Shown here piece after piece: positions 1-35,934 of a stretch of DNA of 64,000 nt. Where the stretch lies: sequence record PZ445134.1. One strand, given 5' to 3'. The DNA comes from a phage. Each line of letters begins with the position of its first letter. The stretch's first letter is position 1. The translations under genes and the position numbers were made by a program. The notes under the pieces were generated by a model, which did not search any database, had not been told where the DNA came from, and was given only the letters and a program-made list of their open reading frames with translations.

Positions 1-654
1 ATGAGTATAATCACCAACTTCTACACCACATTCGTTAGCTATATAATGAAGTAATTTTCCTTGGAGATAAAAATCCAACTGCATAACAACAGCACAGTTC
101 TGAGAACGCATATGACAGTGGGTATAAAGCTTACCATCACGAATATAATAAGTCACTGAGTCAGTACATGGATATTCAAGTGTTTCGTCTGAATCAAGCA
201 AAGCCTGATCAGAACTTTCTAGAATTTGGAACACAACTCTTCGAGAGTTAGGTTTTTCTTTAAGTTCTTTTAGAAGAGTTGGTAACTGGGCCGCAATTCG
301 TGGACCGTAGAAAGTGTTGAAGTTTGCAGGCAAAGCATCTGATTTAGGTTTAGAAATAAATTTAGCGACGTTAGGATATGCCTTAAATGCTTCTTCTGCA
401 TCAGTACCACCAGAAATCATAAATTTCCAGAAATCTTCAGCATATTCATAAGAGATGCGATTAATACGTGGGTCGGTCATTTTGAATGATGAAGGGGTAT
501 CAACAACTACTGTCATAGACCCAATTTCATTACAACGTCCAATACGAGAATCAGTAACGAATTCCGGGTTTTCTAAAATTTCACGATTGACAGCTTTAAA
601 TGCGGATTGAAAATCTGCGGCTTTAATATATTTCATTGTGTTATGTTTTCCCAT
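1..654 (-). CDS. 42: dCMP hydroxymethylase-like (thymidylate-synthase family), 3' end beyond window edge
   Basis: ATG at 654..652 with GAGGT Shine-Dalgarno 4 nt upstream; hand translation MGKHNTMKYIKAADFQ... contains TS-family motifs PNSRR and YPCTDS (catalytic Cys context); sits where gene 42 lies relative to gene 43 in T4. ORF runs off position 1. Confidence 0.6.
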   Translation of the reverse strand, partial: MGKHNTMKYIKAADFQSAFKAVNREILENPEFVTDSRIGRCNEIGSMTVVVDTPSSFKMTDPRINRISYEYAEDFWKFMISGGTDAEEAFKAYPNVAKFISKPKSDALPANFNTFYGPRIAAQLPTLLKELKEKPNSRRVVFQILESSDQALLDSDETLEYPCTDSVTYYIRDGKLYTHCHMRSQNCAVVMQLDFYLQGKLLHYIANECGVEVGDYTH

Positions 655-787: not shown

Positions 788-937
788 CTAGTTGAACAGG
801 TTCTCTTTAATCACTTTAGCCGCTTTAGTTTCAAACAGGCCCATAAGGGCCTTTTTAAGAATTTGTTCGTTGTTGTTAATTTTAATAGTCAAAATCTCTT
901 CGTTAAGTTGGTGGTTAAAAGTTTTTCTAGAAATCAT
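788..937 (-). CDS. small hypothetical protein (~49 aa), coordinates approximate
   Basis: ATG overlaps stop of upstream 386-aa gene (ATGA coupling); below ORF-track size cut-off; contains GGCCC-ATAA-GGGCC hairpin internally. Confidence 0.3.
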   Translation of the reverse strand: MISRKTFNHQLNEEILTIKINNNEQILKKALMGLFETKAAKVIKENLFN

Positions 938-2094
938 TCTGGGTACCTCAAAGCGTCATCAGAGTTAGTTATATCAATAATAGATATAGAGTTTTCCGAT
1001 AACCCATTTTTAGATAACTGACGTTTATAATATCTTTCACAATATGTACACGTCGTCCCACAGATTTCATTAGCACAATCGAAATCTGGATGTTTGAACC
1101 ACCTTTTTTCTAAAAAGCCATCTAACAAAGAGGTTTCAATATTTACCGTATGTGAAAACTCAGTCTCATTTTCAAGAGTGAAAATGGTCTCTAAAGGCTT
1201 CCACAATTCCAACAAATTACCTTCAAATTTTTCAGAAGCATAAGCTTCAAGAACTTTCAAAATGTAGTCTGTGCTACCTGTACGTCCTGAAACTTTGAAT
1301 TGAGTGATACCAATATCATTATAAAGTTTCAAATCTTGAGGACGAACAAAACGAGTTCTCAACCAGTTAAATGGATCTGTATCACGAGCTTTAATACAGT
1401 GCTGCATTGGATATCCATTTAAGGATTTGGCATCATCTACTGTAACATCAGTGCTATGGAAAATATAGCAAGAGTCACGATAACTACAATGTGTTGTATA
1501 CCCTTTACCAGCATTAGAACAGAACTCATTTACAAGAACTTCAAATATTATATTGTTCTTATTACAAAACTCTGCTGCACGCTTCAGGAAAGAAACTGAA
1601 CGGTTCTTATGAATTCCACAGCAGACCTTTTTGATATTATATTGGTCATGCAAGTATTTGATTTGAGTTACAGCATCGACATGTAGAATTGTTGAAACTT
1701 CAATCTCAATGTCTTTATTGACTTCACGAACAATTTCCATAACAACAGGGTTAGCGATAGTAATACGCCAAACGCCTATTGACCAAAGATACTGAACATA
1801 ATCCTGAATAGCTTTCTTCTTCCACTCAACTAGTTCTCTTTTTGAACCAGGATTTATCGTGTTGAGTGTACAGTTAAAGCAAATACCTAATTCGTTACAA
1901 CGTTTAACGTAATCTTCTAACATCTTTTTGTCAACGTCAGGAAGCCTAAAATCAGGTCTGGCTGCTACAAAAGCCATTTCTCTTGTAGAGCCGTATACTT
2001 CGTTTATCAAGCTATTAGGATAAGTTTTATTGAGCTCTACGATTTTATCAAGAAGAGCTAAATCAAAATTCGTTCCGATTTTAAAGGTATTCAT
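934..2094 (-). CDS. Cys-rich 386-aa protein of unknown function; candidate hmC-sugar transferase or Fe-S enzyme
   Basis: ORF track; ATG at 2094; C-terminal cluster CANEICGTTCTYC (C-x4-C-x3-C-x-Y-C) plus internal Cys-rich stretch EFCSNAGKGYTTHCSYRDSC; weak resemblance to U32-family TIM-barrel proteins; last gene of the sugar cassette. Confidence 0.7.
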   Translation of the reverse strand: MNTFKIGTNFDLALLDKIVELNKTYPNSLINEVYGSTREMAFVAARPDFRLPDVDKKMLEDYVKRCNELGICFNCTLNTINPGSKRELVEWKKKAIQDYVQYLWSIGVWRITIANPVVMEIVREVNKDIEIEVSTILHVDAVTQIKYLHDQYNIKKVCCGIHKNRSVSFLKRAAEFCNKNNIIFEVLVNEFCSNAGKGYTTHCSYRDSCYIFHSTDVTVDDAKSLNGYPMQHCIKARDTDPFNWLRTRFVRPQDLKLYNDIGITQFKVSGRTGSTDYILKVLEAYASEKFEGNLLELWKPLETIFTLENETEFSHTVNIETSLLDGFLEKRWFKHPDFDCANEICGTTCTYCERYYKRQLSKNGLSENSISIIDITNSDDALRYPE

Positions 2095-2148: not shown

Positions 2149-2535
2149 TTATAGATTCGGTTTATATGATTTAAATGTTTCGAATTCGCCTTTATTCATA
2201 AGAGCTTTGAATTCGTCAGGACGCATAGCTTTGTCGTCGATAATCCAATCATATACTGGTTTATGTGTTAGCAAATTATGGTACTTCAATCCAATGTTTG
2301 CCAAGTTCTGAATCAGACTTGGGAGAATGTCAATTGCTATACGACCAGGACCGACTGACTTCATACCACGAGCAGTGTAAAGCGTTATGGTATGCCCTGC
2401 ATCATACAGGGCATTAATGGCAGACACCATTTCGACGTCTGGTTTGAAGTTCACGTAATCACGATTGTTATTCCACTCTGTTATACAATCATCGACATCA
2501 AAACAAAGATTAAGCATGTTTTCTACACGGTGCAT
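2149..2535 (-). CDS. HAD-superfamily phosphatase (putative sugar-phosphate phosphatase)
   Basis: HAD motif I FDVDDCIT near N-terminus, motif II TLYTAR, distal DD; start taken at ATG 2535 overlapping upstream stop (TAATG); ORF-track start 2550 is the alternative. Confidence 0.6.
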   Translation of the reverse strand: MHRVENMLNLCFDVDDCITEWNNNRDYVNFKPDVEMVSAINALYDAGHTITLYTARGMKSVGPGRIAIDILPSLIQNLANIGLKYHNLLTHKPVYDWIIDDKAMRPDEFKALMNKGEFETFKSYKPNL

Positions 2536-4220
2536 TAGATTCGTTCCCATTGATGAGTGATATCGCCACCGATTGGACGATAGGAAACACCAGTTTCTTT
2601 ATCAGTTAGTACCCATTTACCAGGATTTTTTGTAATCAGAGTAGCCGTTACAGGTTCTGCTACGTCATAACTAATAGAGCCGTCCTGAAGTACACGGCCC
2701 ATGTTACGTAATTGCTTAGTCAGAAGTTCCATACCTTTATAATATGCGGCTACCGCTTTAAGTGGATTATTCTTGAAATAACCACCTAATGCAATCCAGA
2801 TAATTGCCACTGCCAAATGATGATACTCGTTAAACGAACTCATCTTTCCATATTTGTAAACTAATGGATTGATGTTAATAGTCACATTACAAGTTGTTTC
2901 ATCAATAGTAAACTGTCCCCAGGTCGGATTAGCGTTGAATTCATCATACCCTGAAACAGCATAAAGCACTTTAGCTTCGTCATACAATTTTGGTCCGTAA
3001 ATCTTGGTTTCGCCAAAATATCCACGAGGGTCGATAAACTTGACTTCGCCGTTATCAGTAATCATAGTATTACTGAAGTTCGGGTCACCATGAATAACAG
3101 AGTACTGTCCCTGAGAACGGTTATGATAACGAATAAGGTGTTCTAAAGCTTGTTTCAACATTGGCTTCAGACGTCCGATCTTAGTGTAGTTCACATGTGT
3201 GATTTTACCAAATGAATCAATCAATGGTTGAATACTTTCACAACGATCAATAACTTTCGTATAGAATTCTTTAGTGAAATCACGACGAACAGTTTCAGGA
3301 CTTACAAAATAAGTGTCTGTGCTGAATTTCAGTGCGTCTAAAATTGCATCAACAATTTGTGGACGAGCAAGACTCGATTTGGATTTAATATATTCAAATG
3401 CCGGCTTACCTTTAATGCGTTCCATTTCAAAGTTATTTTCATTAACAGAAACTAACTGAGGAACTGAATCTGATTTCACTTTAAGATACCATGAAATCTC
3501 ATCTTTCTGAAGAGCTCGGCCCTGTTCGGTTAATGCGAATTTAGTTACAGTTTCTTCACCAATTTCAACGGCATTAAAACTACGATTAAGTTCACGAACT
3601 TCATGAGCTTTTTCAAGTTTAGGCATATCACCTAAATCAATTAGATTCATAAGCTCTGATTTATTGAATGCGCTGCCGTAAAGGAATTCTACGAAATCAC
3701 GTCCTTTGCAGTATTCATGAATTTCCTCATCAGTAGAACCCATATAGAATTCCCAGTCTTTGAACTGATAAATTCCTACAACATTACCACCTGTTGAACC
3801 TACGTTAGTGATATTTTCACCGTCGAAATTATATCGACATTCGTCGCCCTTAACATAGATTGCGTTAACATTCCAAGACCACGAACCAAAATCAGGAATA
3901 ATATCGCACCAGTTAACAATTACATTATGGCCGTCTAAATCTTTGTGTAATTTAGCAAGAGCATAAGCAGAACCGTACGCTTCATCAACTGTACGAATAG
4001 TCACATTGAACCCTTCTTGCTCACAATAAGCTCGAACAGTTTCAGCAAATTTTGAATGAACTACTACAATAATTTCATCTGCGCCAAGGTCAGAATAAAT
4101 TGTATACAAATTGCTCAGAATAGTGTCTTGTTTATAGTTAACAAGCACCTTAGGAATATGATGCGTTATTGGATACAAACGAGTTGCCAGTCCAGCACCA
4201 AGAATAACAGCTTTTTTCAT
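2535..4220 (-). CDS. bifunctional sugar-1-phosphate nucleotidyltransferase / protein-kinase-like sugar kinase
   Basis: N-terminus KAVILGAGLATRLYPIT matches RmlA/GlmU-type G-x-G-T-R-L-x-P-x-T motif; C-terminal HGDPNFSNTMI...FIDPRG matches APH/choline-kinase catalytic loop (HGDxxxxN) as in anomeric sugar kinases; ATG with GAGGA SD. Confidence 0.8.
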   Translation of the reverse strand: MKKAVILGAGLATRLYPITHHIPKVLVNYKQDTILSNLYTIYSDLGADEIIVVVHSKFAETVRAYCEQEGFNVTIRTVDEAYGSAYALAKLHKDLDGHNVIVNWCDIIPDFGSWSWNVNAIYVKGDECRYNFDGENITNVGSTGGNVVGIYQFKDWEFYMGSTDEEIHEYCKGRDFVEFLYGSAFNKSELMNLIDLGDMPKLEKAHEVRELNRSFNAVEIGEETVTKFALTEQGRALQKDEISWYLKVKSDSVPQLVSVNENNFEMERIKGKPAFEYIKSKSSLARPQIVDAILDALKFSTDTYFVSPETVRRDFTKEFYTKVIDRCESIQPLIDSFGKITHVNYTKIGRLKPMLKQALEHLIRYHNRSQGQYSVIHGDPNFSNTMITDNGEVKFIDPRGYFGETKIYGPKLYDEAKVLYAVSGYDEFNANPTWGQFTIDETTCNVTININPLVYKYGKMSSFNEYHHLAVAIIWIALGGYFKNNPLKAVAAYYKGMELLTKQLRNMGRVLQDGSISYDVAEPVTATLITKNPGKWVLTDKETGVSYRPIGGDITHQWERI

Positions 4221-4261: not shown

Positions 4262-4405
4262 CTAGTTAAAGCATTCATACTTTGCTTGTAGTCCAATCAT
4301 AATCCATCCGATTATAAGAGTCGGAATCATTACTGGAGCCGTTAAGCTCCAGTAGATAGTCATGACAAGCATCAATAGTAAAAGTCCTATTGTTATTGCT
4401 TTCAT
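4262..4405 (-). CDS. small hydrophobic membrane peptide (~47 aa), coordinates approximate
   Basis: Hand translation MKAITIGLLLLMLVMTIYWSLTAPVMIPTLIIGWIMIGLQAKYECFN; ATG overlaps stop of SIS gene (ATGA); occupies the position of imm in T4. Confidence 0.4.
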   Translation of the reverse strand: MKAITIGLLLLMLVMTIYWSLTAPVMIPTLIIGWIMIGLQAKYECFN

Positions 4406-5037
4406 TGTTCGCCTCGTAACATGGCACCTAGTGCACCGCCAGGGTGGAACTTAAGGAAGTCATTAGAGGTAAATCCACGTTCAGACGAAAGGTTGATAGC
4501 AAACGTATCGATAAGCGCTAACAACAATGTAGTGGACATAGTCGGAGCTAGAGAATTCTCATCAACCTCTACTGCGATGCCTGTACAGAACGTATAATCA
4601 AAAAGAGCTTCGTATTCTTGTGGAATGTCTGGGTTACAATGCAACAGAATCTGTTTGACGTTCGGACGAATCATTTTAAGATGCTTAGCCACGCCTATCA
4701 TTTCTTCAGTTTTACCGGAACGACTAATATGAATCAACACATCATTAGGCGCAATGAATCCTGCATCACCGTGAGAATAATGCCCAGTGTTCAAGTACAT
4801 ACTCGGGATACCGAGTGAAGCAAATGTCTCAGAAGCTTTAGTTGCAATATTAGCATTCTTACCAACACCTGTAATAATTACTCTGCTTTCATAATTACTA
4901 AGTCCCGGGCGTCGAAGAGTTTCTAGAATAGCATTATAACGAGCAGGGTTTTGACTAATTACTTTGGCCATAGCGGCCAAAGAAGAAGCTTGTTTTATGA
5001 TTGCGTCAATAGCGATAGTAATAGGAGTAGTTTTCAT
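4402..5037 (-). CDS. arabinose-5-phosphate isomerase, SIS domain only (KdsD/GutQ/KpsF family)
   Basis: VIITGVGKNANIATKASETFASLGIP and C-terminal SLAPTMSTT...FLKFHPGGALG align with my recall of E. coli KdsD SIS domain (VVVSGIGKSGHIG..., ...SHPAGALG); no CBS domains. Confidence 0.8.
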   Translation of the reverse strand: MKTTPITIAIDAIIKQASSLAAMAKVISQNPARYNAILETLRRPGLSNYESRVIITGVGKNANIATKASETFASLGIPSMYLNTGHYSHGDAGFIAPNDVLIHISRSGKTEEMIGVAKHLKMIRPNVKQILLHCNPDIPQEYEALFDYTFCTGIAVEVDENSLAPTMSTTLLLALIDTFAINLSSERGFTSNDFLKFHPGGALGAMLRGEQ

Positions 5038-35252: not shown

Positions 35253-35455
35253 TATTCTTCTACATGTTGTTTACGGCCTTTCTTATCAATAAAGGTATAT
35301 TCAACGAATGTTCCGATGTAGTCTTTATCTACATCATGTGGACTATTAATTGGACATTTGGTACGACAAATGCGTTCCCATTGACGAATAATTACTGCCT
35401 TATTCTTTGGGTCATATGGATGTGGATAATGTATATTCATAATAATGGTTCCCAA
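35228..35455 (-). CDS. hypothetical protein
   Basis: 75 aa ORF. Confidence 0.4.
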   Translation of the reverse strand: MGTIIMNIHYPHPYDPKNKAVIIRQWERICRTKCPINSPHDVDKDYIGTFVEYTFIDKKGRKQHVEEYCLKVTWL

Positions 35456-35934
35456 TCAACAATCACAATTTCTAGTTTAGTGGAATATGTATCTAAAATC
35501 TCTTCGATTATATCCCAGTTTCCACCACCAATACCTGCACCAATTCTTGGCATATAAATTACAGGCTTTGTTATCTTATTCTTTCCGAATTCATTTAATT
35601 CTATTATACAATTCATTAAAGCAGAGTACTCAAAATTAGGTCCCGGCTCAAACTGTGTATAAAGATTAAAGCAATAAGCTTTATGGGTCTTAAAATATTT
35701 TTCATAAACCGAATAAGTCCCGAGTTTAGACTCGTCTCCGAATTCGGTTTGAAGTTTATCGGCTTCTAAAATTTTTGGATAAGCCTTTGCTAATTGTCCT
35801 GCCACACCGGCGCCCATTGTATGAAAACAATTACACCCATGAGCGATATTATTACCTTTAGAAAACAGGGCGACGATATCGCCCTTGATATAGTTTTTAA
35901 TCACTTGCTGCAAGTCCTCTAGTATAAGAGTCAA
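35437..35934 (-). CDS. macro-domain protein (ADP-ribose binding/hydrolase-like)
   Basis: 165 aa; GDIVALFSKGNNIAHGCNCFHTMGAGVAGQLAKAYP aligns with macro motif (N-x-A-N...G-G-G-V-x-G-A-I); distal PRIGAGIGGG. Confidence 0.65.
   Translation of the reverse strand: MTLILEDLQQVIKNYIKGDIVALFSKGNNIAHGCNCFHTMGAGVAGQLAKAYPKILEADKLQTEFGDESKLGTYSVYEKYFKTHKAYCFNLYTQFEPGPNFEYSALMNCIIELNEFGKNKITKPVIYMPRIGAGIGGGNWDIIEEILDTYSTKLEIVIVDWEPLL

Follow-up and report, generated by a model that had tools for sequence, protein, structure and literature searches.

The DNA of phage RB69 bears arabinosylated 5-hydroxycytosine and not arabosyl-hydroxymethylcytosine (Lee et al., NAR 2026, PMC13326640). The modified nucleotide, 5-hydroxydeoxycytidine monophosphate (5hodCMP), is made by gp48, a ThyA-like, flavin-binding enzyme whose oxygen comes from 18O2. 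In RB69-type phages cytosine is fully replaced through the nucleotide pool, and the putative arabinosyltransferases are RB69 gp46:47 and gp3 (PMC13326640). A further RB69 product, gp50, is entered in Table 1 of that paper as 'Sugar or heterocycle reductase' with a structural match to 5d88; the text never discusses it, and the Discussion names RNA pyrimidine-hydroxylation pathways with no tie to gp50 (PMC13326640). Here we describe the orthologue of RB69 gp50 (RB69ORF050c) that is encoded at positions 934..2094, on the minus strand, of a 64,000-nucleotide (nt) stretch of phage DNA (PZ445134.1; hereafter the window). We propose that this protein is probably the O2-independent, prephenate-dependent cytosine C5 hydroxylase of the modification cassette, and the anaerobic counterpart of the flavin/O2-dependent 5hodCMP synthase.

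The characterised enzymes against which the protein can be set belong to the U32 family. RlhA is needed for 5-hydroxycytidine at position 2501 of 23S rRNA (ho5C2501), in a prephenate-dependent manner, and mutagenesis of RlhA found both the C169/C176 pair and the C-terminal C580/C611 to be essential (PMC5727448). TrhP is needed for 5-hydroxyuridine at tRNA position 34 (ho5U34); it is prephenate-dependent and O2-independent, and is paired with the O2-dependent TrhO (PMC6599085). For UbiU/V, prephenate is the proven oxygen donor (PMC10990095). All U32 proteins characterised to date thus serve hydroxylations that depend on prephenate and not on O2. Characterised U32 members bind [4Fe-4S] clusters. 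By analogy with these enzymes, hydroxylation of a pyrimidine at C5 without O2 would be exactly what the RB69-type cassette needs under anoxia. In the library that we searched, no literature was found that joins U32 proteins, phages, prephenate or chorismate mutase, and DNA modification, and neither the Thanatos paper nor the 2018 RB69 paper discusses the gene.

The window comes from an RB69-like phage of the T4 family, and the DNA of the gene is matched by 172 phage records, with 99.9% identity to Escherichia phage AV112. The open reading frame (ORF) starts with ATG and encodes 386 amino acids (aa). A first-pass annotation, made from the letters alone, had reported this ORF and two strings of cysteines correctly and had considered the fold to be unknown. 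This last point does not hold, as the protein matches Pfam PF01136 (Peptidase_U32) at 42.4 bits (gathering score, 22.4) over residues 94-286 (1237..1815, minus strand); the same domain is present in 118 of 120 listed homologues, and relatives in GenBank are already labelled 'peptidase U32'. A confident structure model gives a TIM barrel, for which the best fold match is 5d88 (Mk0906) and weaker matches are to MTHFR-like reductases. Sequence and profile searches of the PDB returned nothing useful, a match to BIM1 being noise, and 5d88 was reached through fold comparison only. Remote homology to RlhA, TrhP, UbiU and UbiV was recovered by hhalign (95.7%), with direct HMM scores of ~6-13 bits. The remote-homology search and fold comparison that the annotation had proposed thus lead to a known family: the protein is a divergent U32-family member with a TIM-barrel fold.

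The cysteines were examined next to those of the characterised members. The target has 14 (3.6% of its residues), of which ten (C158, C177, C192, C203, C209, C233, C340, C345, C349 and C352) are invariant in a 32-sequence alignment with identity down to 46%; the clusters are therefore conserved features rather than chance. In both HMM and profile-profile alignments C203/C209 align with RlhA C169/C176. They form part of the internal series C192-x10-C203-x5-C209-x23-C233 (1396..1521, minus strand; residues 192-209 read CSNAGKGYTTHCSYRDSC), proposed as a [4Fe-4S] site on the strength of its invariance and of the RlhA alignment, and the target's GYPMQHC233 resembles GYPTLC232 of UbiU. The second series, C340-x4-C345-x3-C349-x2-C352 (1039..1077, minus strand; residues 340-352, CANEICGTTCTYC), is a putative second Fe-S (or Zn) site, analogous to the essential C-terminal cysteines of RlhA. 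On sequence grounds, the invariant cysteines are numerous enough to supply candidate ligand sets for two clusters. The earlier suggestion of a metal- or Fe-S-dependent enzyme acting in the same pathway is therefore supported in spirit by the family and by the alignment of C203/C209, with an Fe-S content that is predicted. The accompanying suggestion that the gene encodes the missing sugar transferase is not borne out, since the fold is a TIM barrel and not that of a Rossmann-type glycosyltransferase, and since the putative arabinosyltransferases are other genes. Neither does the target match the thymidylate synthase fold (PF00303); the ThyA-like gene is a neighbour, at 1..654.

A link to prephenate supply is found in the gene neighbourhoods of the homologues. 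Straboviridae encode chorismate mutase (CM) as a separate protein just downstream of U32. In the phages LC53 (of Serratia) and Entb_45 (of Enterobacter) the start of the CM gene (CM_2, E 1.7e-11 and 2.4e-10, respectively) overlaps the stop of the U32 gene, and the CM gene overlaps the ThyA-like synthase gene in turn. Phage CM was found in 54 phage records from ~13 host genera, and in all 14 records common to the CM and U32 listings it lies within ~400 nt downstream of the U32 gene. The catalytic residues of EcCM (R11, R28, K39, E52, S84 and Q88) are retained in the phage enzyme; R51 is variable, and this in Straboviridae copies only. Three loci of uncultured phages (L041, L043 and L053) encode a fusion of 3-deoxy-D-arabino-heptulosonate 7-phosphate (DAHP) synthase and CM, both domains scoring above the gathering score, and two others (L005 and L030) encode DAHP synthase alone. 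The latter score 221-237 bits, versus 61-67 bits for 3-deoxy-D-manno-octulosonate 8-phosphate (KDO8P) synthase, and these NCBIfam scores rule out a KDO8P synthase identity for the neighbours. Moreover, an Erysipelotrichales metagenome-assembled genome (MAG) carries a stand-alone CM (68 bits) five genes from its U32 gene. The link to prephenate supply recurs, then, in three independent gene architectures and, by analogy with the characterised family members, suggests that the target may use prephenate.

The distribution of the gene was compared with that of the sugar genes. Within the phage collection the U32 gene is present in 222 records, all at >=80% identity, from phages of Escherichia, Klebsiella, Shigella, Serratia, Proteus, Yersinia, Enterobacter, Providencia, Edwardsiella, Pectobacterium, Erwinia and Shewanella. 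The arabinose-activation marker is found in 374 records, 57 of them from Acinetobacter phages, and there is no Acinetobacter phage among the U32 matches listed. Acinetobacter is a strict aerobe. In Acinetobacter phage DLP1 the gene for the HAD phosphatase abuts the ThyA-like gene, and the junction is unbroken in all of the Acinetobacter records listed. Both U32 and CM are missing from the otherwise syntenic cassettes of DLP1 and of Dhakavirus MX01. Because the junction is contiguous where they are missing, we take U32 and CM to be a single insertion/deletion module. Outside phage collections the subfamily was found in 7/100,044 species genomes, of which 6 are from anaerobic lineages (Phocaeicola faecalis, Tannerella, two Romboutsia, Erysipelotrichales and a Bacillota MAG); the remaining one is a BRC1 MAG.

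Across Straboviridae genera, the mean identity of the U32 protein is 84.8%, the highest in the cassette, the validated synthase reaching 78.9% and the sugar enzymes 56-72%. Among individual Straboviridae loci (L009-L031), identity between genera is far higher for U32 (82-89%) than for the flanking AfhE-like protein (42-73%) and Tmk (37-72%). Very strong constraint would account for this difference, and so would a recent exchange of the U32 (+CM) module between genera.

Metagenomes are rich in more divergent homologues (50-58% identity). Loci were taken from assemblies, IMG/VR (48 loci) and the species genomes (7 loci), their ORFs were called and screened with reference queries, and dereplication left 27 divergent U32 clusters of 44-58% identity. 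In 19 of these 27 a gp46:47-type DNA glycosyltransferase lies beside or near the U32 gene, and 8 of the 19 have SIS and AfhE-like (pentose-activation) genes in addition. Two clusters contain a TAGT DNA-base glycosyltransferase (33.9 bits, cut-off 27.5) together with dUTPase/DCD and UDP-galactopyranose mutase, and in two others a deoxycytidine monophosphate (dCMP) deaminase is directly upstream of the U32 gene. Genes that recur near U32 encode enzymes of the nucleotide level, namely dCMP deaminase, Tmk, dNK, NT5C, dUTPase/DCD and guanylate-kinase fusions. A ThyA of the 5hodCMP-synthase type was found within +/-10 kb in none of the 27 clusters. The one candidate, in L032, was rejected: with 243 bits on the canonical model and with both D169 and N177 retained, it is an enzyme of the dUMP type. 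As judged from gene content over this interval, the U32 protein may take the place of the hydroxylase in these divergent phages.

Several of these neighbourhoods are worth describing individually. In L014 (8028-15179) and L038 the order is a gp46:47-type glycosyltransferase, U32, TAGT (PF20691), dUTPase/DCD, an unclassified gene, a second TAGT and UDP-galactopyranose mutase. The arrangement has the look of a gene cluster that makes galactofuranosylated hydroxy-pyrimidine DNA, and U32 would be its sole hydroxylase. In L002 (1448-9939, on a 466-kb contig) and L013 the gene sits in jumbo-phage replication modules with Tmk, UDG, DnaE, dCMP deaminase, U32 and a conserved ~250-aa protein with a weak epimerase-like match. 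Here the deaminase directly upstream hints at 5-hydroxy-dUMP as product rather than 5hodCMP. The cellular copies from Phocaeicola faecalis (L070, 3044-7137), Tannerella (L069), BRC1 (L068) and Bacillota (L003 and L066) are accompanied by GP88, a guanylate kinase-SAM methyltransferase fusion and a weakly HhH-GPD/AGOG-like protein. L003 additionally encodes NT5C, a nicotinamide mononucleotide transporter, dNK, a radical SAM/SPASM protein, a second U32-like protein and a nucleoside deoxyribosyltransferase. The cellular cassette could be a nucleotide pathway that hydroxylates and then methylates, or it could be a defence or anti-defence module.

We suggest the following scheme, in which the U32 protein would provide a second route to 5-hydroxy-deoxycytosine where the ThyA-like synthase cannot work, such as in anoxic gut or sediment. 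Chorismate would be converted to prephenate by host PheA/TyrA or, in related phages, by the CM encoded directly after the U32 gene. The active site of the TIM barrel would bind prephenate together with the pyrimidine, most likely dCMP and alternatively cytosine in DNA; dCMP is favoured by the repeated presence of nucleotide-level enzymes nearby and by the lack of RNA-binding extensions like those of RlhA and TrhP. Prephenate would then be decarboxylated to phenylpyruvate, its C4 hydroxyl moving to C5 of the base, following the scheme proposed for UbiU/V. Two electrons would exit via the C203/C209/C233 cluster, with C192 or another cysteine as a further ligand, and via the C-terminal CX4CX3CX2C cluster. 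The resulting 5hodCMP would enter the known route through a deoxynucleoside monophosphate (dNMP) kinase, DNA polymerase and the DNA arabinosyltransferases.

That a U32 hydroxylase has been recruited to phage DNA hypermodification seems to us the likely interpretation of these data. More tentatively, and as something not quite reaching an even call, we extend the proposal to the whole subfamily. Its members would be phage-borne, O2-independent pyrimidine C5 hydroxylases that act on deoxynucleotides or DNA, and hence the first DNA-directed U32 hydroxylases. In many uncultured phages of strict anaerobes they would be the sole hydroxylase for DNA with glycosylated (arabinose, galactofuranose or other sugars) or methylated 5-hydroxypyrimidines. 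In the T4-like phages of enterobacteria they would stand beside the flavin/O2 5hodCMP synthase as its anaerobic twin, and phage CM would provide the oxygen donor.

A number of observations weigh against an anaerobic hydroxylase. RB69 gp48 and a kinase suffice for 5-hydroxydeoxycytidine aerobically (PMC13326640). Dhakavirus MX01 (L012) and Kosakonia phage 305 (H207) have the ThyA-like synthase and the sugar genes without U32 and CM, and the module is therefore not obligatory for phages of facultatively anaerobic hosts. The association with anaerobes is that seen in the seven species genomes, and the count of 0/27 clusters with a ThyA-like synthase covers only +/-10 kb around the U32 gene. The spacing of the internal cysteines differs from the CX6CX15CX3-4C of the characterised enzymes, and the CX3C pair of RlhA and TrhP is absent; only the first cysteine pair aligns, and the third and fourth ligands given above for the internal cluster are guesses from sequence. 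In the window itself, the CM slot holds only a 49-aa ORF without a CM domain. This lineage has lost CM, and therefore host PheA and TyrA would have to supply the prephenate. Lastly, in vitro reconstitution has yet to be achieved for any U32 hydroxylase (PMC10990095), so that even the mechanism of the family is a proposal.

The alternative that fares best keeps the same chemistry and changes the substrate: the enzyme would hydroxylate cytosine already in DNA, after replication, and not dCMP. We regard this as unlikely but deserving of serious attention. The characterised pyrimidine-directed U32 enzymes do act on polynucleotides (PMC5727448, PMC6599085), five divergent clusters show the order GT46-U32-DnaE with no obvious nucleotide kinase near, and the gene coupled to U32 in L014 encodes a TAGT, whose family works on DNA bases. 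However, the protein is compact and acidic (isoelectric point, pI, 5.99) and lacks the C-terminal extensions of RlhA and TrhP, the recurrent neighbours are enzymes of the nucleotide level, and RB69-type phages swap all of their cytosine through the nucleotide pool (PMC13326640).

The published label of gp50 implies a different role, that of a sugar or heterocycle reductase or some other accessory enzyme for nucleoside diphosphate (NDP)-arabinose (PMC13326640, Table 1). The gene does come directly after three sugar-activation genes, the TIM barrel weakly matches MTHFR-like reductases, and the BASEL annotation (H47) reads 'putative enzyme involved in UDP-arabinose biosynthesis'. Yet Acinetobacter phages, including DLP3 with its tri-arabosyl-5-hydroxycytosine, have the whole sugar pathway without a U32 gene, and the published scheme from ribulose 5-phosphate (Ru5P) to UDP-arabinofuranose (UDP-Araf) has no need of a redox step. 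Such a role would explain neither the link to CM and DAHP synthase nor the presence of the gene in clusters with other sugars. Since Acinetobacter phages make poly-arabinosylated 5-hydroxycytosine without the gene, and since the link to the shikimate pathway is left unexplained, we consider a function in the sugar pathway improbable.

It is more improbable still that the protein is a phage copy of TrhP or RlhA that hydroxylates RNA (U34 of host or phage tRNA, or rRNA) to tune translation, apart from DNA modification. T4-like phages encode tRNAs, and the known pyrimidine-directed U32 enzymes modify RNA. Against this, the gene sits among DNA-modification genes, and is inherited along with them, in phages that differ widely, the target has no RNA-binding extensions, and the enterobacterial hosts already own TrhP, TrhO and RlhA.

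Finally, we give next to no credence either to a radical-SAM-type enzyme, which the first-pass annotation had hinted at and for which the invariant C345-x3-C349-x2-C352 does fit the CX3CX(aromatic)C spacing, or to a true U32 'collagenase' peptidase, as the family name and GenBank annotations would have it, because there is no match to Radical_SAM (PF04055) at E<=1, a complete U32 barrel precedes the motif and the fourth invariant cysteine, C340, suggests a fully ligated cluster with no SAM site, while none of the U32 members characterised by genetics was found to function as a peptidase (PMC10990095) and the cassette offers no evident role for a protease.

If the gene does encode an O2-independent hydroxylase, it would close a gap in the pathway: the sole known route to 5-hydroxycytosine needs O2, yet these phages live in the gut, and a second route would explain how gut phages keep their DNA modified without O2. 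We would draw a parallel with the ribonucleotide reductases, of which T4-like phages have an aerobic and an anaerobic type. Phenotypes would depend on oxygen and on the aro pathway of the host, which would matter for phage therapy and for studies of defence evasion. Hydroxylation by U32 enzymes and prephenate would extend from RNA and quinones to DNA precursors. Moreover, a small, soluble and strongly conserved enzyme whose substrate may be simple would offer the in vitro U32/prephenate assay that the field needs, and could be the first to be reconstituted. The survey suggests that uncultured phages of anaerobes commonly hypermodify their DNA at hydroxy-pyrimidines, with various sugars or by methylation, and the U32 gene could mark this.

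The remaining features of the cassette lie on the same strand as the U32 gene. The ThyA-like 5hodCMP synthase (RB69 gp48 type, flavin/O2-dependent; function from PMC13326640) is represented by its 5' part (218 codons) at 1..654, where it runs off the start of the window; its product is identical (tblastn, 100%) to gp070 of phage F2, and 280 nt separate it from the U32 gene. On the other side are a HAD-like phosphatase (RB69 gp51/AfhF-like, 2149..2550; role from PMC13326640), a bifunctional nucleotidyltransferase/kinase for NDP-arabinose (RB69 gp52:53/AfhE-like, 2535..4220; Pfam NTP_transferase and kinase-like C-terminal matches, and PMC13326640) and an SIS-domain arabinose-5-phosphate isomerase (RB69 gp55 type, 4402..5037; Pfam SIS and annotation). 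The gene for the T4-family DNA polymerase is two ORFs upstream of the cassette. Translational coupling of the U32 gene to the sugar-activation genes had been proposed; the HAD stop (2149) and the U32 ATG (2094) are 54 nt apart, and the two genes are therefore not coupled. The base had likewise been taken to be hydroxymethylcytosine, with DNA containing it as the substrate, and it is 5-hydroxycytosine (PMC13326640).

The sole overlap of the U32 gene is downstream, where it has ATGA in common with the 49-aa ORF (788..937, minus strand) that occupies the CM slot of related phages. This ORF was tried as a decayed CM and rejected: it has no Pfam match and no tblastn match, and its DNA similarity is limited to a short N-terminal stretch, so that no pseudogene can be recognised in it. 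Within the ORF is a short GC hairpin (AGGCCCUUAUGGGCCU). The L017 lineage is likewise without CM. For the F2 orthologue (L001, NC_054913.1), RefSeq gives 389 aa, with a start 9 nt further upstream (934-2103 in the window); we retain 386 aa because the upstream ATG is out of frame in the window and the homologues start at MNTFK. Scans for promoters and terminators and RNA folding around the U32 gene gave results at chance level only. No NrdD glycyl-radical motif was found in the window. Elsewhere, at 35437-35934 (minus strand), a 165-aa ORF carries a macro-domain-like motif (GCNCFHTMGAGVAGQL); a weak CM-like tblastn match at 35468-35635 is antisense to it and was dismissed as chance.

Set against described systems, the nearest structure is Mk0906 of Methanopyrus kandleri (PDB 5d88), a U32 'peptidase' of 247 residues, which matches the fold at 11-14% sequence identity and is without the region of the target's C-terminal cysteine cluster. 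In function, the closest parallel is RlhA (YdcP), which acts on C2501 of E. coli 23S rRNA. It shares the fold family, the aligned cysteine pair and a further C-terminal cysteine cluster, its 5-hydroxylation of cytosine is the chemistry that we propose for the target, and its need for prephenate parallels the link to CM and DAHP synthase. However, RlhA is a protein of 653 aa with large C-terminal domains and a pre-50S RNA substrate (TrhP has 453 aa), whereas the target has 386 aa and the context of phage DNA modification; the third and fourth cysteines of the RlhA CX6CX15CX3C are not conserved in the target, and the similarity is profile-to-profile only (95.7%). The ThyA-like synthases RB69 gp48, DLP3 gp80 and that of HY126 share with the target the proposed product, 5hodCMP, and the cassette. 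They differ in having the fold of the thymidylate synthase superfamily, in being flavin-dependent and in taking their oxygen from O2 (PMC13326640), and in divergent phages the U32 subfamily is found without them (within +/-10 kb).

TrhP and UbiU/V differ from the target in their substrates, which are a tRNA uridine and a polyprenyl phenol, respectively. Moreover, UbiU/V form a heterodimer that works with UbiT, whereas the target has no evident partner but CM. Their genetic logic is nevertheless the one that we would apply here. TrhP and TrhO, and UbiU-UbiV and UbiI/H/F, each reach one product by an O2-dependent enzyme and by a U32/prephenate enzyme, and so serve both oxic and anoxic life (PMC6599085, PMC10990095). 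By the same logic, the flavin/O2 ThyA-like synthase and the U32 protein would make up the corresponding pair in these phages.

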